The notes beneath the pieces were generated by a model. The model did no database searches, was not told where the DNA came from, and was given only the letters and a program-made list of their open reading frames with translations. A stretch of DNA of 8,791 nucleotides. It comes from a virus. Lineage: Duplodnaviria; Heunggongvirae; Uroviricota; Caudoviricetes. Location: IMG/VR virus record IMGVR_UViG_2740892488_000005, positions 1 to 8,791 of that record; one strand, 5' to 3'. A program made the translations under genes and the position numbers. Shown here in pieces: positions 1 through 8,791 of this stretch; within the stretch, counting starts at the first letter, position 1, and every line of letters begins with the position of its first letter.

Positions 1-46
1 ACTTGTGATAAATCCGAATGGTTTGGTCGCCGTTCGGGGTAACTGG

Positions 47-68
47 CCCGCCTTGTGCGGGTCTTTTT
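47..68 (+). terminator. Putative rho-independent terminator ending an upstream off-window transcript
   Basis: Hairpin CCCGC (47-51) / loop CTTGT / GCGGG (57-61) followed directly by TCTTTTT (62-68). A TAA at 40-42 could be the stop of a gene entering from the left. Confidence 0.45.
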
Positions 69-127
69 GCTATCTAAAGGGTGCCGGTTACGTTTCCGGC
101 GTCGTTATGTTTCCATTACGACCGTAC

Positions 128-200
128 AGGGCTGGTCAGGCCCGGGCTGGTCTTTCCTGTTTTGAGCTGGTCAGGCTCATGGTCAACGCTGGTCAGGCGT
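128..200 (-). repeat. Tandem array of three stem-loops with conserved 7-nt loop (TGGTCAG on plus, CUGACCA if transcribed leftward) and covarying 4-5 bp stems
   Basis: Loops at 133-139, 168-174 and 190-196. Stems GGGC/GCCC (129-132/140-143), TGAGC/GCTCA (163-167/175-179), ACGC/GCGT (186-189/197-200). Same element occurs inverted at 2191-2205 and 4615-4631. Confidence 0.6.
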
Positions 201-291
201 GGTACTTCCTCCGGTCTTTCCCTGGTGTCACGCTGCGGGTTTGGCCTCTCCTGTTGGGGACTCAGGCACAGCGATAAAACCTGGCTGTGTG

Positions 292-319
292 AAAAAATGG
301 CCCATCGTGCGGACTGGGC
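292..319 (-). terminator. Possible intrinsic terminator on the minus strand
   Basis: On the minus strand GCCCA / 10-nt loop / TGGGC (plus 300-304 pairs with 315-319), then C and a T6 run (plus A-run 292-297). Stem is short, so tentative. Confidence 0.3.
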
Positions 320-764
320 AAAGACTAAACACAGCAAATTGATGATGGGCGCCGGAATCGAACCGGGTAACGGGCAGGGAGTTCCCGTTAAACACCTGTT
401 CACCACAACCGGGAGCGCACTCCGCCATTTCAAAATTTAACGACAAAGCTCAAAGTTGAGTCGATGAAGTGCGCTCTCGTGTTGTAGCCAGGACTCTTCC
501 CTGGTGGTCACACCGTATCGCCTTGATGGTGAATCAATCGCTCATACCTGGCTGTGGCTTGCACATTCCGGCTACCTGCTATGGAGACAACGCGTTAAGG
601 CTCCGCTTCCATCCAGACCGCTTCGACACATGTGCCATATGCCGGTGAAGTCTTTCCCTCTGTCACCGTGTTGGCGCCGACGCGCAAAATTTGGTGCCGT
701 CTTTCCGGCTGTCAGAACGTGTTTCTGAACAACTGCCGCTGGGTAAGCGTTGTTGATGAAAGTG

Positions 765-820
765 ACTTTACAATTTGTATTTGTAATGGTCAATGTGTTT
801 TTAAAAAATAATTTGTAGTG
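765..820. promoter_or_regulatory. OL-like operator cluster downstream of the repressor gene
   Basis: AT-rich block with TTTGTA at 774-779, 780-785 and 812-817; palindrome TACAA-T-TTGTA at 769-779; 9-mer ATTTGTAAT (779-787) also present at 1372-1380 in the repressor/cro intergenic region. Confidence 0.4.
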
Positions 821-911
821 AGGGGCAAAAAAATATTCACTGTGTAAAGGTGTTTTTGTGTTAGGGGAAAGTTGCATGCCAGCAGCGGCTGGCCTGGAAA
901 TTTGAACTGAA

Positions 912-1304
912 CTATTTTGTCTGGTTTTTGGCTTCAAGTAGTTCTTTTAGCAGTAGATCGAAGTGCTCTCTTTTTTCTTTTAGCTCATTGATTAATTTAT
1001 TTTTTTCGCTCTCAGGCAGTCCTCTGAATAGTTGCAGTAGAGCCTGTTCTTGCGGGGTTAGTTCTTGATTGTAATTACCCGGGTGTAGTGTGGATTCATC
1101 CAAATATTCCCCTTCATTCATGAAGAAAAAATGAACAGGGTATCCGGTCACTTTTGCTAGCTTGTCTAATTTATCTTTTCTTGGAGTTACCCCATTACAC
1201 CATGCCTGAACTGATTGAGCCGTAACCCCAATATGGCGAGCTAACTCAGATTGAGACCAGCCTAAGTCTTTTAGAATCCGTTGTAGTCGGCTAGCAAAAG
1301 CCAT
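912..1304 (-). CDS. Prophage CI-like repressor, XRE-family HTH, 130 aa, with no LexA-like S24 peptidase domain
   Basis: ORF 912..1304 (-). N-terminal HTH signature (LGWSQSELARHIGVTAQSVQAW) and helical C-terminus; divergent from a cro-like gene across an operator-rich intergenic region. No Shine-Dalgarno within about 15 nt upstream of the ATG, so possibly a short-leader or leaderless mRNA. Confidence 0.8.
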   Translation of the reverse strand: MAFASRLQRILKDLGWSQSELARHIGVTAQSVQAWCNGVTPRKDKLDKLAKVTGYPVHFFFMNEGEYLDESTLHPGNYNQELTPQEQALLQLFRGLPESEKNKLINELKEKREHFDLLLKELLEAKNQTK

Positions 1305-1424
1305 GTTTTTCGTTTTTTGTGTTCATACCGTAAGGATACAAGGTTTAATTGTAGGGAGCATTGCAAATATAATTTGTAATTACAGTTATTGTTTGTAATG
1401 ATGACGCGGACACAAGGAGTCCAT
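1305..1424. promoter_or_regulatory. Divergent promoter/operator region between repressor and cro-like gene (OR-like)
   Basis: AT-rich 120 bp intergenic region with perfect 10-bp palindrome TGTAATTACA (1375-1384), further TTTGTA copies at 1373-1378 and 1392-1397, a TTGCAA -35-like hexamer at 1361-1366, and AAGGAG SD at 1414-1419. Confidence 0.55.
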
Positions 1425-1655
1425 ATGGATAAACAACTGCAAGACAAAATTCTTTCCGTAATGAGTCAATCCGAGTTAGGGCGGCGATTAGGGAAAAAAC
1501 CACAAACGGTAAGCCTCTGGTTCAAAGGACGGGTTCCCGGTGAAGAGGTTTTGCGCACATCTGAAGCTCTTGAATGGCGCGTGACCCCTCATGATCTTAG
1601 ACCGGATCTTTACCCAAACCCAGATGACAGCTTGCCTAAAACGGAAGCAGCTTAA
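1425..1655 (+). CDS. Cro/YdaS-like HTH regulator, 76 aa
   Basis: ATG at 1425 preceded by AAGGAG (1414-1419). The track ORF starts at 1389 but that ATG lies inside the operator repeats with no SD. HTH (SQSELGRRLGKKPQTVSLWF) and the C-terminal HDLRPDLY motif typical of Cro/YdaS-type prophage proteins. Confidence 0.75.
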   Translation: MDKQLQDKILSVMSQSELGRRLGKKPQTVSLWFKGRVPGEEVLRTSEALEWRVTPHDLRPDLYPNPDDSLPKTEAA

Positions 1656-1713
1656 CTGTTGGTGAGCCCCAAATCTGATTAAGCGTAATCAATTTTTAGC
1701 GACAGGAGACGCT

Positions 1714-2190
1714 ATGGAAAACCAAGAGGAATTACAAAAAGAGATTTTGACCTGGGCGGCAAGGGCAGGGCAGGAACTCGTCACGATTGAAATCTGCCGG
1801 GCCTGGTTCAGTCAGGGACGCAATGATGAGTTGAGACTACATGAATTTGAGGACGCGGACGGCAACGTGGACTGGAGAGCCATCAACAACAATCGGCAGA
1901 AAATCTTTCGCTGGTTACGTGGCGAGACAACGGCGGCGCGCCGAAAAACTCAGGTGCTGGCCAGTGTGATGAAAGCCGTGCTACCCGCAGAACGGCGGGC
2001 ACGTCTGGAGTCGCCGGGCGATCCCGTTTTGCTGGCAACGCTGGCGGCAAAAGAAGGGGTGGAAGCGATTAACGCTGTACATCTCCACTTCGCGCCAGAG
2101 TTAACTATTCAGGAAATTGACGAAGCAATAGCGGCGCTGGTAGCGACGCGAGGAGCAGTGATACGCACTGCGCAAGACCACCATGCATGA
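1714..2190 (+). CDS. YdaT-like (CII-analog) prophage regulator, 158 aa
   Basis: ORF 1714..2190 with AGGAG at 1703-1707. Contains the motif NNRQKIFRWLRGETTAARRK, which I recognise from Rac-prophage YdaT-family proteins; sits immediately after the Cro/YdaS-like gene as in Rac-type immunity regions. Confidence 0.65.
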   Translation: MENQEELQKEILTWAARAGQELVTIEICRAWFSQGRNDELRLHEFEDADGNVDWRAINNNRQKIFRWLRGETTAARRKTQVLASVMKAVLPAERRARLESPGDPVLLATLAAKEGVEAINAVHLHFAPELTIQEIDEAIAALVATRGAVIRTAQDHHA

Positions 2191-2229
2191 GCGCCTGACC
2201 AGCGTTTAACTTATACCGAGGAAAGACCG
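2190..2229 (+). promoter_or_regulatory. Stem-loop plus conserved SD leader cassette (copy A)
   Basis: Directly after the TGA at 2188-2190: stem GCGC/GCGT (2191-2194/2202-2205) with loop CTGACCA (2195-2201), 9-nt spacer, then ACCGAGGAAAGACC (2215-2228) and ATG at 2230. Same architecture at 4615-4651. Confidence 0.55.
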
Positions 2230-2388
2230 ATGTTAAGACATATTGACCGCATTACCTGGCGTAACGGCTGGCACCTGAATGGACGCCCGGCACATGTTGC
2301 AGAGATCCGCCCCATATTCGATGGCCGCGTCGCAGCTGCACGTTCTGTATGGGAAAAGTACGAAGAAGAAAAAAGCGAAACTGCGTGA
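2230..2388 (+). CDS. Hypothetical small protein, 52 aa (below the ORF-track size cutoff)
   Basis: ATG 2230 to TGA 2386-2388, translating MLRHIDRITWRNGWHLNGRPAHVAEIRPIFDGRVAARSVWEKYEEEKSETA. Supported by the strong SD (GAGGA) and by the identical 14-nt leader that precedes the 136-aa gene at 4652. Confidence 0.45.
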   Translation: MLRHIDRITWRNGWHLNGRPAHVAEIRPIFDGRVAAARSVWEKYEEEKSETA

Positions 2389-2451
2389 GCAAAATCTCTC
2401 TGGCGCTGCCTATGAGGCTGGCTGTCGCGTTCTCTCAGAGGCTTTGGGCAT

Positions 2452-3042
2452 ATGAACATCCTCCCGTTACTTGATAGACCCATAGCCTTCCAGAGAAGTT
2501 TTATCCGTCTTGAAATGGGCGTGACTGCCGCATTGTTTCTGTCGCAGTTGACGTACTGGACAAACAGAACAACTGACGACGGCTGGGTATATAAAACCCA
2601 GGATGAGTGGGAAGAGGAAACAGGGCTTTCACGATACGAGCAGGAGGGCGCGCGCAAAAAACTACGTGGTCTCGGCGTCTTGCTGGAACGTAAACAGGGC
2701 TTGCCTGCCAGGCTGTACTACAAAATCGATAATGATGTGTTGTGCCAGCTACTTACGTCCGCATACAAGGATGCGGAAAAACCACATACAGGTGAGGGGA
2801 AAACCACCAGGCCTGTACGTGGAAAACCAACAAACATTCTTACAGAGAATACTACAGAGATTATTACTGATGGTGAATCGGCTGACGCCGACACCCAACA
2901 ACCTGCCGACCAGAGAATAAATTATCAGGTGATACTCGATACCTATCACGAGATTTTGCCAGAGATGCCACCAGTGAAAATCCTCACTGACGGCAGAAAA
3001 AAAACACCTTCGCACTTTCTGGAAAAAATTCAATTTCAATGA
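2452..3042 (+). CDS. Phage replication initiation protein (replisome-organiser type, winged-helix N-terminal domain); reading frame probably disrupted near its 3' end
   Basis: ORF 2452..3042 (196 aa); N-terminal region resembles phage O-like/DnaD-like initiator winged-helix domains and lies directly upstream of a DnaB-family helicase. An adjacent frame stays open from 2978 to 3208 and ends overlapping the helicase start, suggesting a +1 frame change at A8 (2997-3004) or A6 (3023-3028). Confidence 0.6.
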   Translation: MNILPLLDRPIAFQRSFIRLEMGVTAALFLSQLTYWTNRTTDDGWVYKTQDEWEEETGLSRYEQEGARKKLRGLGVLLERKQGLPARLYYKIDNDVLCQLLTSAYKDAEKPHTGEGKTTRPVRGKPTNILTENTTEIITDGESADADTQQPADQRINYQVILDTYHEILPEMPPVKILTDGRKKTPSHFLEKIQFQ

Positions 3043-3197
3043 GTCCCGTTGGCGGGCCTATCTGGAATTTATCGGTGGCAATTGTCGCTGGATGCTGGAG
3101 GACAGGCCAAATGGCAGGGGAGGATTCTGGCGGCGTAAAAATCTTGATTATCTGATTACCGAACGCTGCTATGTTTCGGTCAAGGAAGAACGCGCAA

Positions 3198-4613
3198 ATG
3201 ATAAATAACGCGATTGCACTGTACAGCGTTGACGCAGAACAGGCTGTTCTGGGCTGTCTGATGCTGAATACCGACCACGACAGAACCAATGCGGTATTTG
3301 CGTTACTGAAACCGGAAACGTTTTATATCAATGCGCATCAGGTTATCTACCGGGAGATCAAAGGATTATTTCAAGCTGATAAACCAACTGACCTGATAAC
3401 ACTGACCGAACTGATGGAATCGAAGGGGCTGTATGAGCGCGTGGGGGGATTCGCATACCTGGCTGAAATGAGTAAGGCGGCGATTCCGGCCTCAATGGTC
3501 AACTACGCGAAAATTGTACGTGAAAAAGCCATTCTTCGTTATGCCGTGGAAAAGTTGAATTCTTGTCTGGAGATTATGATCCAGCCTGCAGATATGACTG
3601 CTACTGACAGGATCACCGCCGTTCAGCAAGTGATTGGGCAGGTGGCCGAACATTCCCGTACCGGGCATAAGGGCGGTTTGCGTCCGGCAAGTGAAGTCGT
3701 CGATGACTGGATAGATGACCTTGAGCGCCGTTTCAATGATCCAGCACATGCAGCCGGACTAACGCTCGGAATCGAAAGCCTTGATCGCTTAATGGCACCA
3801 AAGCAGGCGTTAAGAGGTTCATTGGTCGTTATTGGTGCCCGGCCAAAAATGGGCAAGACAGCCGCGTTTAATAAAATTGCGGTGCATTTTGCTCTGAATC
3901 ATCGTTTGCCGACGCTGGTATTTAGCCTGGAAATGACTGACAGAAGTCTCATTGAACGCATGGTTGCGCAGGAAGCAAAGGTCAATTCGGAGATTTTTTA
4001 TCTTGGCCCTAACGATGAATCTGAATTGAGTCTCGCAATAGCAAAGGCGGGGGAGATTGCCGAATCCAACATGATGATTGACAGCACGGCAGGTGTAACC
4101 CTTGCGCATATTGTCGCTGAATGTCGAAAAGTTAAACGGATGCGTGGCTCGGTTGGCCTGGTGGCAATTGACTATTTGACGCTGATGAAGACCGAATCGG
4201 CAGAGCGTAGGGATATTGCGTATGGCGATATCACAACCGGTTTGAAGAACCTGGCAAAAGAGCTGGATTGTGTTGTGGTCCTGCTGACGCAACTCAACCG
4301 AAAGCTTGAAGAACGTGCCGATAAGCGGCCTAACCCGAGCGACAGTAAAGATACCGGGCAGATCGAACAAGATTGCGATGTCTGGATTGGCCTCTATCGT
4401 GATGCTGTTTATAACGAAAATGCCGACCCAAATCTCATGGAAATGTTGCTACGTCTGAACCGCGAAGGACCATCGGGAACAGCCTATGCCCTGATGAAAA
4501 ATGGCTCAGTTATTGATATCAGCGATGAGGAGGTTTATCGCCTTACCAACGACCGCTCAGAAAAAAATAAACGTTATTCCCGTAGCGATAATTCTCGCAC
4601 AAATGAATTTTAA
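3198..4613 (+). CDS. DnaB-family replicative DNA helicase (phage-encoded, P22 gp12-like)
   Basis: Track ORF 3171..4613; preferred start is ATG 3198 with AAGGAAG SD at 3183-3189. DnaB N-terminal motif (SVDAEQAVLGCLML), Walker A (GARPKMGKTA), SLEM motif, and LTQLNRKLEERADKRPNPSDSKDTGQIEQDCDVWIGLYRD matching the DnaB H3/H4 region. Confidence 0.9.
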   Translation: MINNAIALYSVDAEQAVLGCLMLNTDHDRTNAVFALLKPETFYINAHQVIYREIKGLFQADKPTDLITLTELMESKGLYERVGGFAYLAEMSKAAIPASMVNYAKIVREKAILRYAVEKLNSCLEIMIQPADMTATDRITAVQQVIGQVAEHSRTGHKGGLRPASEVVDDWIDDLERRFNDPAHAAGLTLGIESLDRLMAPKQALRGSLVVIGARPKMGKTAAFNKIAVHFALNHRLPTLVFSLEMTDRSLIERMVAQEAKVNSEIFYLGPNDESELSLAIAKAGEIAESNMMIDSTAGVTLAHIVAECRKVKRMRGSVGLVAIDYLTLMKTESAERRDIAYGDITTGLKNLAKELDCVVVLLTQLNRKLEERADKRPNPSDSKDTGQIEQDCDVWIGLYRDAVYNENADPNLMEMLLRLNREGPSGTAYALMKNGSVIDISDEEVYRLTNDRSEKNKRYSRSDNSRTNEF

Positions 4614-4614
4614 C

Positions 4615-4651
4615 CACGCCTGACCAGCGTGAAATAACCGAGGAAAGACCA
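4615..4651 (+). promoter_or_regulatory. Stem-loop plus conserved SD leader cassette (copy B)
   Basis: Directly after the helicase TAA (4611-4613): stem CACGC/GCGTG (4615-4619/4627-4631) with loop CTGACCA (4620-4626), 5-nt spacer, then ACCGAGGAAAGACC (4637-4650) and ATG at 4652. Confidence 0.55.
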
Positions 4652-5062
4652 ATGACCACCACTCCAGGCAAATTAGAGTACCCGTCGGACAAAGGACACA
4701 TAGACGACGGTAAAAACTATCTCGACGTCATTTTGTGGAATATGAACGTCGGGCCACGTGCGCGCACTCGCGCGGTTTTTGTGCCAAGACCTAAAGCAGG
4801 CAATTTTTCAACCCCTGCTAAGCCTGCCCGTCAGGCATCCGTAGCCGCAGCGCCAGCAGTGAAACGTAAGGGCAAAACGCACACCGGGATCGCGATTCGC
4901 AGAAATGGTGAGCGGCAAGTGAAACTCCACGAAACAGCGACAACCTGGTGTGCCTCACCGCATGAAACTTACGACAAGATAACCGGGCAGCGCATTGGCG
5001 CGCCTGGTCGCTGCCGCCTGCTGCTGAGTTCCATCACTCCGATAGCAAAGAAAGGGGCGTGA
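4652..5062 (+). CDS. Hypothetical protein, 136 aa
   Basis: ORF 4652..5062 with the conserved SD leader; enterobacterial-style codon usage (CTG, GCG, CCG rich); no competing ORF on either strand. No family recognised. Confidence 0.6.
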   Translation: MTTTPGKLEYPSDKGHIDDGKNYLDVILWNMNVGPRARTRAVFVPRPKAGNFSTPAKPARQASVAAAPAVKRKGKTHTGIAIRRNGERQVKLHETATTWCASPHETYDKITGQRIGAPGRCRLLLSSITPIAKKGA

Positions 5063-5063
5063 T

Positions 5064-5300
5064 ATGGCCGGGCAATCAGATTACCTGCCGCCCGGCTTAC
5101 CACACAACCGCGCCAAATGGCCCCAGGAATACCAGCTTAAAGAGCACTACGACATGCGAGCGGCGGCGCTGATCCGCCAACTCTTTGAGAAACGTATTCC
5201 GAGGGGAAGCGTGATTGAGCAAATCGGAATGACGCCAGATACGTACCGGGAATTTTTCAGAGAGCGTCTGAACTACTGGAGAGGGGTGATGGAACAATGA
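5064..5300 (+). CDS. Hypothetical protein, 78 aa
   Basis: ORF 5064..5300, starting 1 nt after the previous stop; purine-rich AAAGGGG upstream. Its stop overlaps the next start in an ATGA arrangement. Confidence 0.55.
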   Translation: MAGQSDYLPPGLPHNRAKWPQEYQLKEHYDMRAAALIRQLFEKRIPRGSVIEQIGMTPDTYREFFRERLNYWRGVMEQ

Positions 5301-5608
5301 AATACAAACGGTGGGTGCGTGCGGAAGTCGTAATCATCAAACAATGTGCGGGCAGCATGACAGTTGAACGTATAGGGCAGCTTATTGGCAGAACCGGTGC
5401 AGCGGTACGCACAAAAGCGCGCGAGCTGAAAATCTGTATGTATCTGCGGGGTAATTATCACCAGTCAGTGAAATACCTCCAGGAAGATATCGAGCTGGCA
5501 AGGGAATTACATCAGTCGGGTATTAATCGCCAGGATATCGCAGAAAAACTCGAAATGCCGATCGGAGCGGTGAATCAGTTTGTTTATTTTGAGCGGAGAA
5601 TTTCATGA
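5297..5608 (+). CDS. Hypothetical DNA-binding protein with two HTH-like segments, 103 aa
   Basis: ORF 5297..5608; ATGA overlap with the upstream gene. Two helix-turn-helix-like stretches (MTVERIGQLIGRTGAAVRTKAREL and INRQDIAEKLEMPIGAVNQFV); the HTH assignment is inferred from sequence pattern only. Confidence 0.5.
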   Translation: MKYKRWVRAEVVIIKQCAGSMTVERIGQLIGRTGAAVRTKARELKICMYLRGNYHQSVKYLQEDIELARELHQSGINRQDIAEKLEMPIGAVNQFVYFERRIS

Positions 5609-5829
5609 AAGAACTTTTTCTTGCATTTGTGCCCCGGTTTATTAATGACCAGATCGCACTGACTGATAATGGTGAACAATATGAAATTGCCTGCAGCATG
5701 GTGGATGTGAATCCTGGCGAACGGTATGACGCGATGTGTGACCTGAAAATATTTACCTGGCTGGGTTGGGCTATTCCGTGTGGAGAACCAACCAATATTC
5801 GTCCGTTTGAGAGCAGGGAGGCTGTATGA
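5605..5829 (+). CDS. Hypothetical protein, 74 aa
   Basis: ORF 5605..5829; ATGA overlap with the upstream stop, part of the coupled small-gene chain. Confidence 0.5.
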   Translation: MKELFLAFVPRFINDQIALTDNGEQYEIACSMVDVNPGERYDAMCDLKIFTWLGWAIPCGEPTNIRPFESREAV

Positions 5830-5942
5830 GTGAATTGAAAATACGTCGCAAGGCAATAGCACGCGTTAAAAATCTATTACCAGTGCCTGTCAAATATCGT
5901 TTTTGTGGTGGGAATGTACGGATTGGTACGGATGTATGGTGA
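5826..5942 (+). CDS. Possible small ORF, 38 aa
   Basis: ATG 5826 overlapping the upstream stop (ATGA), stop TGA at 5940-5942, translating MSELKIRRKAIARVKNLLPVPVKYRFCGGNVRIGTDVW. Only positional evidence. Confidence 0.3.
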   Translation: MSELKIRRKAIARVKNLLPVPVKYRFCGGNVRIGTDVW

Positions 5943-6016
5943 TTGCGGAGTGACGTAAAACGAATCGTTGTGGGTGTAATATCGTCAATATCATTGGTTT
6001 CCCGGAGGGAAAGGAC

Positions 6017-6238
6017 ATGTTTGGCGATAAACTGGAGTTACCACGGAACGGGCGGATAGTGCTCTATATTTCAGATTACAAAGTAACCCGGGCTGAGGTG
6101 TTGGAACCGGAAAAACATCTGGTCACGTTACCGGACATTATTGAGTTGTATAAGCGGGTCGGATATGTGGACTTGCATCGCGATGATGTTCCCGTTGAGT
6201 GTATGGAATGTGAACACCGGAGGTTTGAAGTTGATTGA
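6017..6238 (+). CDS. Hypothetical protein, 73 aa
   Basis: ORF 6017..6238 preceded by GGAGGGAAAGG; followed about 90 nt downstream by a terminator-like hairpin plus T7. Confidence 0.5.
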   Translation: MFGDKLELPRNGRIVLYISDYKVTRAEVLEPEKHLVTLPDIIELYKRVGYVDLHRDDVPVECMECEHRRFEVD

Positions 6239-6329
6239 ATTGACTTAGAAAAAGTCCGGGGCTATAGTTTCCGCGCAGCCGCAAAATCGGTTGCCGGGAT
6301 TGGCGTCCCGGATATCTAAGTGACGCATA

Positions 6330-6349
6330 GCCGCGTTAGCGGTTTTTTT
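6330..6349 (+). terminator. Putative intrinsic terminator closing the small-gene operon
   Basis: GCCGC (6330-6334) / loop GTTA / GCGG (6339-6342) followed by T7 (6343-6349). Short stem, moderate confidence. Confidence 0.45.
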
Positions 6350-6448
6350 ATGTGTTAGGCACGGCCACATTCGCATTATGGTGGGCTGTGTGGGGGCTTC
6401 TGTGGAAGCGCCGGGTTCACTTAGCCGGTTACGCCAACCCTGCACAGC

Positions 6449-6481
6449 TCACCACCAGATGATTGGCGTCGCTGGTGGTGA
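6449..6481. promoter_or_regulatory. Perfect 10-bp inverted repeat immediately upstream of the antirepressor start
   Basis: TCACCACCAG (6449-6458), 13-nt spacer ATGATTGGCGTCG, CTGGTGGTGA (6472-6481); right arm contains the Chi octamer GCTGGTGG (6471-6478). Antirepressor SD AAGTGAGG at 6495-6502 and ATG at 6511. Confidence 0.4.
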
Positions 6482-6510
6482 TGAAAAAAACACTAAGTGA
6501 GGCCACTGCG

Positions 6511-7300
6511 ATGACAGTCCAAATATCTGCGGAATCCCTTTCTCCGCTACATCATAACCAACTTCCCGTCATCACTACTGAATTGCTTGCCAGTTTGTAT
6601 GGCACGGAAGTAAATGGTATCCAGCAAAACTTCAAGCGCAACATCGCCAGATTTGTCGTAGGAAAGCATTTTTTTTAAGCTGGAAGGTAATGAATTACGC
6701 GACTTCAAAAACAGACTGACAGATAGTCAGTCAGTTGCTAAACATACCCGATCCCTCATTCTCTGGACAGAACGCGGCGCAGCTCGCCATGCCAAAATGC
6801 TGGAAACAGAACAGGCCTGGGAAGTTTTCGAAAAGCTGGAAGATTGTTATTTTAGCCAGCGTCCAGAGAGGCGGAGTACAACTACCGATGACCGTACTCC
6901 CTTGCGTGATGCCGTTAATATACTGGTCGGCAAGAAAGGCATGATGTATCCCGATGCCTACACCATGATTCATCAACGCTTCGCCGTCTCTCACATAGAA
7001 CAACTGTCACAGACGCAAATGTTAGAGGCGATTGAATACATCCACTGCCTGCTACTCGATGAAAATCACCCAACCATTCCAGATTTTTCTTTTATCACCA
7101 CTATCAAAAATGGAAAAGTGACCGGGATGCGCCATGTTGCCAAAGGCGAACATCTGATGACCTTTGACGCTTTCAAAGAGATCGCTGAGCGGGCAGGGTA
7201 TCTGGTGATCCACAGCGACAATCTGCGAAGTATGACACTGGATAAATTGATGGTAATGGGGAAAAAGTCGGCTATATCCGTTGCTAATTCAGCATTTTGA
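6511..7300 (+). pseudogene. Phage antirepressor-type regulatory protein, interrupted by a frameshift in a T8 run
   Basis: N-terminal part in frame 1 (6511-6678, ends GKHFF-stop) and C-terminal part in frame 2 (track ORF 6797..7300, open from 6677). Removing one T from T8 (6669-6676) gives a continuous ~262-aa protein with the conserved stretch GKHFFKLEGNELRDFKN...SLILWTERGAARHAKMLETEQAWEVFEKLEDCYF, which I recognise as antirepressor-like. Confidence 0.65.
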
Positions 7301-7427
7301 CAGGTTGTTTGGGGCGGAAATACTCTATTTGCGCTTAAAAAGGTATTTGACCACGACCAGCACGAGACCGAATACCTCTGTCAAAGTACCGCCCATATAA
7401 AACAGTTACATATGCACTTGATGACTA

Positions 7428-7459
7428 AGCTGGCACCAGGTTAACACCTGGCGCCAGCT
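7428..7459. other. Strong near-perfect hairpin between convergent genes (14-bp stem, one mismatch, 4-nt loop)
   Basis: AGCTGGCACCAGGT (7428-7441) / TAAC / ACCTGGCGCCAGCT (7446-7459). No U-tract on either strand, so not a canonical intrinsic terminator. Confidence 0.4.
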
Positions 7460-7589
7460 TGAAGGAGACTTCAGTTATTGGTTTCTGAGGAAAGCGATTC
7501 TTGAAAGGGTCATTTGCGTCTGGCAGTCGACCATTTTCTTGACTTCAGCATCTGTTCCCTGCATTGAAACTTTACCGCACATAGCATCC

Positions 7590-8294
7590 TTAGTTTTGAT
7601 CCACTGACGCTGAGAAGGCAGCAAATCTTTTTTTCTTCGCCGGGGTTAACTTGCTCCAGACGGTACTCAAATCAGAGTCGGCATTCGCAAATGCCATTCG
7701 GGACTGATCAAGGTTGTCAGCTTTTTGCGGCTGAAGTTGTGCCTGTCTCTCTATTTGCTTCTCCGCCTCATACTTAGCCTGTTCTTGCGCCCTGAGTTGC
7801 ACCTGTTGTTCCGCTTCAATTTGACTCTGTTGGGCATCCTTAGCCTGCTGGATTTTCTGCTGCTCAACGATCGGGGTGATAATGGAAAGCGATGTCAGTA
7901 AAGCGGCGCCCACTGATATCGGATTATCAGTAGAGGTTTTTACAAAAACGTTTTTCTGATCGTCGGTCGCCTGCACGGTGTAGGTGATACGTTTTGAAAA
8001 GGCGTTTGCGTTGTTCTCCAAAAACAGGCTTTCCATTTGCTTATCGAGATTACGATTAAAATTCTTTCTGTAAGCATCTGAAAGCTGGACGTACTCGTTC
8101 GCAGATAGAGTCATCGTCACGGTCCCTTCACAAGTTTTCATTGTGCTGCCCGTGTCACTTGATGTTGTGGAGATCTCAGAGATGGCTAGTTTGATCTTGT
8201 CCAGTGTGCTTCGTTTGGTCTGATTAGTGACATCAGGGTATTTATCGACCTGTTCAGAGAGTCCTTCATAAGCAGATTTTTTTAATAAATCCAT
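7590..8294 (-). CDS. Hypothetical protein, 234 aa: N-terminal domain, central hydrophobic helix, Gln/Glu-rich coiled-coil C-terminal region
   Basis: ORF 7590..8294 (-). Hydrophobic stretch ISVGAALLTSLSIITPIV followed by a heptad-like Q/E/A-rich segment. Frame stays open upstream of the ATG until a stop at plus 8358-8360, inside the IS end, so the native 5' end or promoter may have been displaced by the IS insertion. Confidence 0.55.
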   Translation of the reverse strand: MDLLKKSAYEGLSEQVDKYPDVTNQTKRSTLDKIKLAISEISTTSSDTGSTMKTCEGTVTMTLSANEYVQLSDAYRKNFNRNLDKQMESLFLENNANAFSKRITYTVQATDDQKNVFVKTSTDNPISVGAALLTSLSIITPIVEQQKIQQAKDAQQSQIEAEQQVQLRAQEQAKYEAEKQIERQAQLQPQKADNLDQSRMAFANADSDLSTVWSKLTPAKKKRFAAFSASVDQN

Positions 8295-8420
8295 GAGAGC
8301 TGACTGGGTTATTTCCGAAGAACAACCGATCTCATCTTTTTTGTTATCTGAAGTGGTTTACTGAATTTGGCCACCTGAACAGAGGTGATATGCTCACCTC
8401 AGAACAACACAGGTGCCATA

Positions 8421-8721
8421 ATGAAAAAAAGAAATTTCAGCGCAGAGTTTAAACGCGAATCCGCTCAACTGGTCGTTGACCAGAATTACACCGTGGCAGA
8501 TGCAGCCAGCGCTATGGATGTCGGCCTTTCCACAATGACGCGATGGGTGAAACAATTACGTGATGAGCGGCAGGGAAAACACCAAAAGCCTCCCCTATTA
8601 CCCCGGAACAAATTGAAATCCGTGAGCTCAGGAAAAAGCTACAACGTATTGAAATGGAAAATGAAATATTAAAAAGGCTACCGCGCTCTTGATGTCAGAC
8701 TCCCTGAACAGTTCTCGATAA
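8421..8721 (+). pseudogene. IS3-family transposase OrfA (HTH plus leucine-zipper regulator), apparently frameshifted twice
   Basis: [53 protein letters not shown] in frame 3 (from 8421); expected continuation [27 protein letters not shown] in frame 2 from 8597; expected C-terminus [14 protein letters not shown] in frame 1 ending at TAA 8719-8721. Frame changes coincide with an A4 run (8576-8579) and the A5G slippery-site region (8671-8676). Confidence 0.65.
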
Positions 8722-8791
8722 TCGGGAAACTCAGGGCGCGTTATCCTGTGGCCACTCTCTGCCATGTGTTCGGGGTCCATCGCAGCAGCTA
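8676..8791 (+). CDS. IS3-family transposase OrfB, N-terminal part (3' end beyond the window)
   Basis: Frame 3 open from 8676 to the window end with a typical OrfB N-terminus ([16 protein letters not shown]). Confidence 0.6.

Follow-up and report, generated by a model that had tools for sequence, protein, structure and literature searches.

Structured RNA elements and an RprA-like 3′ end in the non-coding stretch beside the repressor gene of a lambdoid Escherichia coli prophage

Introduction

In phage lambda the rexAB genes are transcribed together with cI. What takes this position in a lambdoid prophage where the space beside the repressor gene appears empty? The question is raised by a stretch of 8,791 nucleotides from a tailed phage (IMG/VR record IMGVR_UViG_2740892488_000005, positions 1 to 8,791), here called the window. 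About 0.7 kb of it, at 70–760, is without recognizable genes. We find here a conserved structured RNA of about 165 nt, which we call Element B, a tRNA remnant and a 3′ end resembling the small RNA (sRNA) RprA, all on the minus strand. We consider it likely, judging from the sequence comparisons below, that bases ~83–793 form the promoter-proximal, non-coding section of the early-left transcription unit and include an sRNA that mimics RprA.

Coding status and origin of the stretch

Bases 1–900 of the window match 415 complete E. coli genomes at more than 99% identity, and in none of these does RefSeq annotate a feature over them. The host element, as seen in strain SK1144 (locus L001 among the phage and prophage loci that we fetched), is a lambdoid prophage beside tRNA-Leu with an immunity region of the RacR/YdaS/YdaT type. 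Its left-operon genes stop 100 bp left of the window. More than 470 complete E. coli genomes match the prophage, and several of the matches listed are labelled O25b:H4-ST131. The landmarks are as follows.

912–1304: helix-turn-helix (HTH) repressor gene
L001 15070–15760: equivalent of window 70–760
L001 10128–11144: integrase, ~5 kb left of the window
L001 9911–9997: tRNA-Leu

Synteny with the window is also seen in BUCT708, the record of a complete phage genome (listed under Stenotrophomonas), which is 72% identical over 19–758, the conservation coming in blocks. Because the stretch is syntenic in a complete phage record, it is phage DNA, neither host intergenic DNA nor the remnant of an attachment (att) site. 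An earlier reading made from the sequence alone (the sequence-only reading) had offered an att remnant with arm-type sites as one option. This option falls away, since the integrase and the tRNA-Leu att site lie ~5 kb to the left and the stretch itself is syntenic in BUCT708. The same reading had named two outcomes that would overturn it. Neither emerged: relatives do not show host intergenic DNA, and no known gene came to light with Pfam, PHROG or a frame-switch comparison.

We agree with the sequence-only reading that 70–760 holds no credible open reading frame (ORF). Eight ORFs of 59–121 amino acids in 1–940 have no Pfam or PHROG match. Compared with relatives they reach 35–55% amino acid identity and show frame switches and stop codons despite 72–80% identity of the DNA; the control genes (repressor, YdaT and DnaB) behave as genes in that same test. 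A protein-coding or pseudogene reading was thus rejected for want of a family match and of conservation at the protein level.

Element B

The centre of the stretch is occupied by Element B. Its parts, all on the minus strand, are:

483–647: Element B, a structured RNA of ~165 nt with five helices (covariance model 141 bits, E = 1e-38, single copy)
624–644: helix H1, loop GGCAC
H2: helix that encloses a variable hairpin
558–576: invariant 19-mer GGUAGCCGGAAUGUGCAAG
523–537: H5, loop UUCACCA (YUCACCA in the alignment)
H6: pseudoknot supported by covariation, CACC pairing with GGUG across H5
488–504: H7, loop GAAGAGU (GAAGAGN in the alignment)

The structure that we tested has four nested helices and two pseudoknots, including a possible GCAC/GUGC loop pairing (PK1). 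In a MAFFT alignment of 28 non-redundant sequences with less than 93% mutual identity, 96.9% of the cells pair, and 11 pairs carry double changes (69 cells). None of 500 shuffles reached the observed pairing, and in slid controls 24–44% paired. A covariance model built from this alignment, with H6 and the loop pairing omitted from the stored structure, gave 99 matches in 98 phage and prophage loci. In their 78 distinct sequences the four nested helices pair in 96.7% of cells, with 210 double-change cells. G-U pairs that never vary show that the sense strand is the minus strand. The loci had been fetched by the 19-mer; thus neither its invariance nor that of the GCAC/GUGC pairing is informative. 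The variable hairpins H3 and H4 are individually no more stable than shuffles.

Element B is widespread. Window 473–644 matches unannotated gaps in unrelated phages, namely Uetakeviruses (such as SPN1S, Tyrion and PAT1), the two P1-like phages SJ46 and D6, and phages of Klebsiella, and the exact 19-mer occurs in at least 120 viral contigs. It is present in 695 of 5426 E. coli genomes (~13%) at 716 matching places, 218 of them on plasmids; RefSeq annotates it in none of the 695. It is also found in P1-like phage-plasmids and in phages of Salmonella, Klebsiella and Enterobacter. When genome contigs were scanned with a 15-mer, most of 120 loci were chance matches and five, all enterobacterial, were confirmed by the model (99 of the 120 screened); model matches among the genome contigs come from Enterobacteriaceae only. 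As far as sampled, Element B is restricted to phages of this family. Two copies ~800 nt apart occur in one locus (L028, 3995–4155 and 4802–4960, minus strand), the second without the exact 19-mer and with two broken pairs in H2.

No described RNA family includes Element B. Rfam 15 gave no relevant match at E ≤ 10 for 1–950 or 478–652, and for Element B none at the gathering threshold in 14 related loci. Kinship with the RNase P M1 RNA, considered for the words CUGACCAG, GAGGAAAG and AGCCAG..UGAGCGAUUG, was rejected: the best local score is 23, and shuffles score 20.2 ± 2.2. We found no paper describing Element B and none containing its conserved words. The text of a 2023 catalogue of ~10,000 candidate viral RNAs (PMC10690425) gives no description of it; the catalogue itself may contain it.

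Resemblance to a tRNA-type operon

Downstream of Element B follow a long hairpin and a decayed tRNA, again on the minus strand.

403–484: long hairpin, CAACACGAGAGCGCACUUC pairing with GGAGUGCGCUCCCGGUUGUGG (inverted repeat I5 and fold)
435–444: conserved GUCGUUAAAU in the internal loop of the long hairpin
340–409: tRNA remnant with an acceptor-like 5′ strand GUUGUGG and the T-arm CCGG-UUCGAUU-CCGG at 352–366

The T-arm is canonical; its stem has 5 bp in the SK1144 copy and is shortened in the window by a single-base indel at 351. ARAGORN at default settings reports no tRNA at 340–409, and at lowered stringency a degenerate tRNA in the SK1144 copy only. The Rfam tRNA-Sec model gives 16 bits (E = 3.8) on the region. 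A tRNA with an intron was considered and dropped, as ARAGORN -i yields a nonsensical model with a 275-nt intron.

In many phages this position is held by an intact tRNA-Arg(UCU), and in enteropathogenic E. coli (EPEC) E2348/69 by an annotated 113-nt pseudogenic tRNA. A same-strand tRNA stands at a fixed distance from Element B in 45 of 129 loci: tRNA-Arg(UCU) starts right after the long hairpin 3′ of Element B in 27, and tRNA-Met(CAU) ends just before H1 in 18. In SPN1S, L012 and L007 a hairpin of this type comes after Element B and runs right up to the 5′ end of tRNA-Arg. Across phage types the recurrent order is promoter, in some phages a hairpin with GUCGUUAAAU, Element B, the long hairpin (CAAC..GAGAGC/GCUCUC..GUUGUGG), a tRNA or tRNA-like segment, seed and terminator, and a small hairpin. 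From this order the layout appears to be that of a phage tRNA-type operon, and because relatives carry intact tRNA-Arg or tRNA-Met beside Element B, the transcript is probably cut by the enzymes that process tRNAs.

Side by side with this order stand some variants. A long hairpin with GUCGUUAAAU lies 5′ of Element B in PAT1 (L005 1669–1728) and Tyrion and also in L004, L007 and L253. That the hairpin precedes Element B in some Uetakeviruses and follows it in the window means that phages have shuffled these RNA modules. In L017, ~150 to 270 nt past the 19-mer (also in Tyrion and L004), we noticed by eye a tRNA-like segment with an anticodon-type loop CUUUUAA (Lys-UUU-like), an aberrant T-arm and a 3′ end ...CCACCACAUCCA; the segment could imitate a tRNA instead of being the relic of one.

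Phage-borne RNAs that are stable or supported by covariation are known near tRNA genes, among them GOLLD, ROOL and the 'species 1/2' RNAs of the T4 tRNA cluster. Element B shares the co-location with tRNA genes; it is much smaller than GOLLD and ROOL and has no homology to them in Rfam. In kind these RNAs are its closest analogues; in position the closest is HK022 put, discussed below.

The RprA-like 3′ end

The trailer behind the tRNA remnant ends in two features of the minus strand.

292–339: end resembling RprA 59–105, with the seed UUGCUGUGUUUAGUCUUUGC at 318–337, the terminator GCCCAGUCCGCACGAUGGGC at 300–319 and U6 at 292–297
267–289: post-terminator hairpin CACAGC...GCUGUG

Window 292–339 and nucleotides 59–105 of K-12 RprA are identical in 43 of 50 aligned columns (86%). 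Rfam finds a partial match to RprA (RF00034) at 290–399 on the minus strand with 36.2 bits (E = 0.018), and a terminator scan finds the intrinsic terminator at 300–319 with its U-tract at 292–297. To nucleotides 1–58 of RprA there is no similarity (local score 13, shuffles 10.9 ± 1.9). A hairpin of the form ACAGC...GCUGU follows the terminator in other phages as well.

The fetched loci contain the seed, as GCUGUGUGUAGUCUU(U/G)GC, at a further 25 places, where the terminator stems are unrelated; the pattern of seed plus terminator has 27 matches in all, counting the window and K-12 rprA. A seed that is kept while the terminators are replaced is the pattern expected if the seed itself is under selection. 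In RprA, nucleotides 60–105 are the highly conserved part, exist as a natural fragment and are sufficient to down-regulate csgD (Mika et al., PMC3465796). RprA and the phage seeds are predicted to form the same 13–15-bp duplex with the csgD leader, at −25.4 kcal/mol for RprA and −22 to −27 kcal/mol for the phage seeds. We infer that the 3′ piece may act as a base-pairing sRNA of the Hfq type on targets that RprA represses, for example in the control of curli and biofilm.

Compared with RprA, the phage piece shares the seed UUGCUGUGUGUAGUCUUUGC, the terminator hairpin and the U-tail. It differs in that nucleotides 1–58 with the rpoS-activating region are missing, in its place at the end of a prophage transcript of PL/tRNA type instead of a chromosomal locus, and, in this copy, in a G-to-U change within the seed. 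We found no paper on a phage RprA-like sRNA. HnrS is unrelated. We also considered whether the seed targets the phage's own GGAAAGAC sites or its Shine–Dalgarno (SD) cassettes, both described below, and rejected this, the cassette duplexes lying under the background average; one strong pairing site for the seed within the phage (640–675) is not conserved in BUCT708.

sRNAs can arise from such trailers. 3′ETS-leuZ, from the 3′ external transcribed spacer of a tRNA, is described as a sponge for other sRNAs. Here too the RNA is the trailer of a tRNA or tRNA-like gene and shares the operon terminator, and in relatives the seed follows an intact tRNA-Arg. In contrast to leuZ, which sponges sRNAs, this trailer copies the seed of an sRNA, and the tRNA is degenerate here. 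The anti-sRNAs AgvB and AsxR of enterohaemorrhagic E. coli (PMC4104026) are likewise prophage RNAs that use the logic of the core-genome sRNA network; they are reported to mimic mRNA target sites as sponges, whereas the RNA described here copies an sRNA's own seed.

Promoter, leader and read-through

Upstream of Element B we predict a promoter and a folded leader.

765–793, minus strand: PL-like promoter from a sigma-70 consensus scan (−35 TTGACC 788–793, 17-nt spacer, −10 TAAAGT 765–770)
773–787 and 811–819, minus strand: operator-like half-sites ATTTGTAAT
648–757, minus strand: 5′ leader with hairpins at 728–754, 713–727, 696–709 (GCCG-GAAAGA-CGGC), 674–685 and 647–660 (GAGG-GAAAGA-CUUC)
45–70, plus strand: terminator-like hairpin CCCGC-CUUGU-GCGGG followed by a T-run

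The half-sites cluster only at 765–819 and at 1360–1399, the gap between repressor and cro, with 8 matches where 2.7 are expected. Transcription is predicted to start at ~757. The homology to BUCT708 begins exactly at this point, though the immunity region of BUCT708 differs, and BUCT708 has its own TTGACG-17-TAAATT at an equal distance from the start of homology. The stems of the leader show compensatory changes in the relatives L002 and L098 (GCCCG/CGGGC, GCGG/CUGC); the thermodynamic z-score of the leader is only −1.2. Between the stop codon of the repressor gene and PL (912 to 760) the terminator scan finds no terminator, which makes read-through from the repressor gene possible, and transcripts of this gene probably also enter the region.

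The plus-strand hairpin at 45–70 (within L001 14960–15070) points against the left operon and is near-invariant in BUCT708; in L098 the stem is a different one, and the A-run and T-run are placed alike. An antisense RNA over the leader and ribosome-binding site (RBS) of the first left gene might end at this hairpin. A plus-strand promoter for an RNA ending at 45–70 was not found. We also considered a plus-strand sRNA ending there and rejected it, as a promoter is missing and weak isrK/isrB matches at 1–67 are at chance level.

Hairpin array and cassettes

Beyond the RprA-like terminator the left-operon leader continues with an array of hairpins. Two of its loop motifs recur in front of genes transcribed to the right.

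83–225, minus strand: hairpin array in the left-operon leader
211–225, minus strand: GAAAGA hairpin
186–200, 163–179 and 129–143, minus strand: hairpins with the heptaloop CUGACCA
146–160, minus strand: unpaired GGAAAGACC
101–122 and 83–100, minus strand: further hairpins of the array
2192–2232, plus strand: hairpin-SD cassette, GCGC-CUGACCA-GCGU, spacer, GAGGAAAGACCGAUG
4617–4654, plus strand: hairpin-SD cassette, ACGC-CUGACCA-GCGU, spacer, GAGGAAAGACCAAUG
150–157, 214–221, 650–657 and 699–706, minus strand: GGAAAGAC
2220–2227 and 4642–4649, plus strand: GGAAAGAC

The sequence-only reading had seen dense short repeats in 70–760, including the core of the SD leader, and both are real. GGAAAGAC occurs six times in the window where 0.36 copies are expected, a number that none of 200 shuffles reached; the positions given earlier were off by 1–2 nt. 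The composite pattern GTCTTTCC-N3-TGTCA fits two copies (650–665 and 699–714) and not the third (214–230), which has a 4-nt spacer. The cassette-like AAAACAGGAAAGACCAGC is present as described, at 165–148 on the minus strand. A second motif, CCTGACCAGC, which had been half seen, has five copies against 0.47 expected. All 11 copies of GGAAAGAC and CCTGACCAGC are sense to local transcription across two divergent operons. The enrichment check which that reading had called for gives motifs far above chance and specific for the sense strand.

As RNA, each of the three CCUGACCAGC copies presents the CUGACCA loop on a different stem (ACGC/GCGU, UGAGC/GCUCA and GGGC/GCCC). In L001, L002 and L098 all 14 copies of CUGACCA in hairpin context have a stem of at least 4 bp, compared with 2.4% of random heptamers. 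GAAAGA occurs in two settings, first as the loop of 4–5-bp hairpins of the non-coding leader, the stems differing in a compensatory manner among relatives, and second in a stereotyped initiation region, GAGGAAAGACC(A/G)AUG, in front of many genes of these phages. The cassettes orthologous to 4617–4654 in L002 and L098 have kept the stem through compensatory changes (GCGC/GCGC). CUGACCA and GAAAGA loops also stand before the SD of several phage genes; the hairpins that carry them therefore probably serve one common factor or processing step at the RNA level.

A third cassette lies left of the window (L001 14975–15010, minus strand) and reads AUCACAAGU-GACCAA-ACUUGUGAU and then GAGGAAAGACCAAC; its AUG is lost in this prophage. 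In BUCT708 and L098 this cassette still has GAGGAAAGACCAAUG, where a short ORF begins that overlaps with the first gene of the left operon.

Could these repeats be sites on the DNA, such as arm-type att sites, iterons or other protein-binding repeats? The direct repeats GCTGGTCAGGC, present three times at a spacing of 22–35 bp, would suit such a role. Each repeat, however, consists of a hairpin loop with its closing pair, on stems that vary from copy to copy, the motifs keep to the sense strand in all 11 copies across two divergent operons, and integrase and att site are far off; we give this explanation almost no credence.

A second possibility, also among the options of the sequence-only reading, is that the array at 83–225 together with the GAAAGA hairpins of the leader is a decoy or sponge. 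It would titrate a trans-acting protein or RNA that reads the cassettes of CUGACCA hairpin and GAGGAAAGACC and in this way set the translation or stability of the cassette genes. Two loop motifs are indeed common to the array and to real initiation cassettes and always sense, the stems covary around fixed loops as expected of a recognition hairpin, and the copy number varies among relatives (5–6 in L098). Yet no candidate binding factor is found among the ten neighbouring products tested, the RprA-like seed shows no preferential pairing to the cassettes, and the repeated cassettes could equally be recombination linkers or stabilisers of mRNA. A CsrB-type sponge for CsrA was rejected, GGA not being enriched (8 in 293 nt, 5.5 ± 2.0 expected). 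Overall we regard titration as quite improbable.

The array also recalls the nut boxB hairpins of lambda and P22 in its short GC stems, its conserved purine-rich or UGAC-containing loops, its sense specificity and its place in early operons; the P22 boxB sequence which it resembles is GCGCUGACAAAGCGC. It differs from boxB in having 3–6 copies per leader plus copies in front of genes rather than one per operon, and loops of 6–7 nt that are not GNRA-like pentaloops. A boxA-like CCCUUUAG at 74–81 is a weak match, judged by eye. No N-like Pfam family was found among the ten neighbouring products, a set to which the early-right genes at 5605–6238 do not belong.

Finally, the sequence-only reading had proposed a decayed array of hairpin-SD modules. 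This fails for 294–757, whose RNA structure is kept across unrelated phages. A wider form of the idea, in which the stretch is a decayed array or the relic of a protein gene and selection no longer acts on it, can point to the degenerate tRNA and to the AUG lost just left of the window and kept in relatives. Against it stand the compensatory changes of Element B in 78 distinct sequences from unrelated phages, a seed that is invariant while terminators differ, the missing protein-level conservation and family matches, the >99% identity in 415 E. coli genomes and the blocks conserved with BUCT708. We consider this reading largely refuted already and very unlikely to be true.

Other features of the window

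Aligned over 8348 nt, the window and SK1144 have no substitution between them and are told apart by seven homopolymer indels of one base each (at 64, 351, 1313, 2369, 2997, 6669 and 7628). Two of these, at 64 and 351, fall within the region studied here; Element B and the seed are untouched. Some ORFs that are whole in SK1144 are split by the indels in the window (2230–2388 plus 2452–3042, 6463–7300 and 7590–8294). The indels are probably sequencing or assembly errors rather than signs of pseudogenes.

Collinearity with SK1144 stops at 8348. The remaining 8349–8791 encodes a frameshifted HTH protein that resembles ORF A of the IS3 family (the family judged by eye); therefore an insertion sequence seems to interrupt the prophage there. 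A segment of 78 bp at 7326–7403 has a second copy, 90% identical, ~2.4 kb to the right in SK1144 (L001 25745–25822). At 6262–6459 on the plus strand we find an antisense immunity module of P1 type, with Rfam scores of 80 bits for isrK, 75 bits for the C4 antisense RNA and 53 bits for the a1/b1 targets of the C4 antisense RNA. It stands directly 5′ of an ORF6N-domain, antirepressor-like gene (ORFs 6463–7300).

Discussion

Among the options of the sequence-only reading, a structured leftward non-coding transcript is the one that has gained most, with a covariation-supported RNA family of 165 nt, a tRNA remnant and a predicted RprA-like end with its terminator. The stretch is much more than a repeat array. 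We suggest that its expression could proceed in the following steps. A repressor-controlled promoter of PL type would start the minus-strand RNA at ~757. This RNA would fold into the hairpin leader, the pseudoknotted Element B, the long hairpin, the decayed tRNA and a 3′ trailer which ends at the intrinsic terminator with the U-tract at 292–297. RNase P and RNase E would then probably cut the transcript into separate stable pieces, of which the 3′ piece, dependent on Hfq, would repress RprA targets such as csgD and dgcM. Polymerases that pass the terminator would transcribe a further 220 nt of CUGACCA and GAAAGA hairpins before they reach the first left-operon gene.

Several points weigh against this proposal. 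The promoter is a consensus match and nothing else, one site having been found where 1.8 are expected by chance, and if PL were the sole promoter the RNAs would be silent in the lysogen. Folding of single sequences gives modest z-scores of −1.1 to −1.9. Fetching the loci by the 19-mer accounts in part for its invariance and, with it, for the proposed PK1 pairing. In this copy the tRNA has degenerated, and so RNase P may not process the transcript. By the Rfam measure the 3′ piece falls outside the RprA family, as it scores 36 bits under a threshold of 70 bits and is without the 5′ half. Moreover, with the G-to-U change in the seed of the window the predicted csgD duplex reaches no more than −17.9 kcal/mol, a value matched by 4% of shuffled seeds.

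What could Element B do? Most likely it is a stable RNA that acts in trans with a partner of its own. The reading that we rank second takes it as a put-like RNA in cis, which binds RNA polymerase and lets it read through the RprA-like and later terminators without N, and so allows expression of the left operon or, elsewhere, of downstream moron genes. In HK022 put two stem-loops of ~70 nt just 3′ of PL cause antitermination by RNA only (PMC9378689), and this precedent is close in some respects: Element B too is a structured RNA directly 3′ of PL, 5′ of intrinsic terminators, in a lambdoid phage of the RacR/YdaS/YdaT type in which no N-like protein was found among the ten neighbouring products tested. 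The put RNAs suppress termination in cis by way of the zinc-binding domain of the β′ subunit, and rpoC mutations in this domain abolish their function. In most contexts Element B is promoter-proximal. In 89 non-redundant loci, 71 terminator calls fall 300–450 nt after the 19-mer on the sense strand, although the background of the terminator finder is high, and both EPEC and L198 have a second strong terminator that sits directly against the RBS of the following gene. On the other hand, Element B has 165 nt and pseudoknots and shows no likeness to putL in sequence or architecture; the putL region of HK022 (NC_002166), which we compared as a possible homologue, resembles neither window 648–757 nor Element B. 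It also occurs away from PL and beside tRNAs: in the P1-like phage-plasmids it sits between tRNA-Met and ban without a terminator, and in L034 and L090 nothing obvious lies downstream. The linkage to tRNAs at a fixed distance better fits a processed stable RNA. In our view antitermination by Element B is therefore rather unlikely, and we prefer the trans-acting stable RNA.

A further-reaching proposal, which we put forward tentatively and with less confidence than the RprA-mimic transcript, is that Element B represents an undescribed class of phage RNA which travels with the RprA seed. It might be an RNA-only antiterminator or a partner of the tRNA machinery (e.g., an anti-defence decoy), and the phages would plug into the RprA regulon.

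In summary, a rexAB position that looks 'empty' in a lambdoid phage can contain RNA genes, which annotation based on ORFs overlooks. Element B is a compact, well-conserved pseudoknotted RNA that is open to direct functional tests and has a real chance of proving to be a new functional class. If expressed, the cluster would be a phage-controlled input to the RprA network of biofilm matrix and cyclic di-GMP signalling. Were the further-reaching proposal true, temperate phages of Enterobacteriaceae would systematically tap the RprA regulon, with its control of curli, cyclic di-GMP and conjugation, from a tRNA-type operon in the position that rexAB has in lambda.

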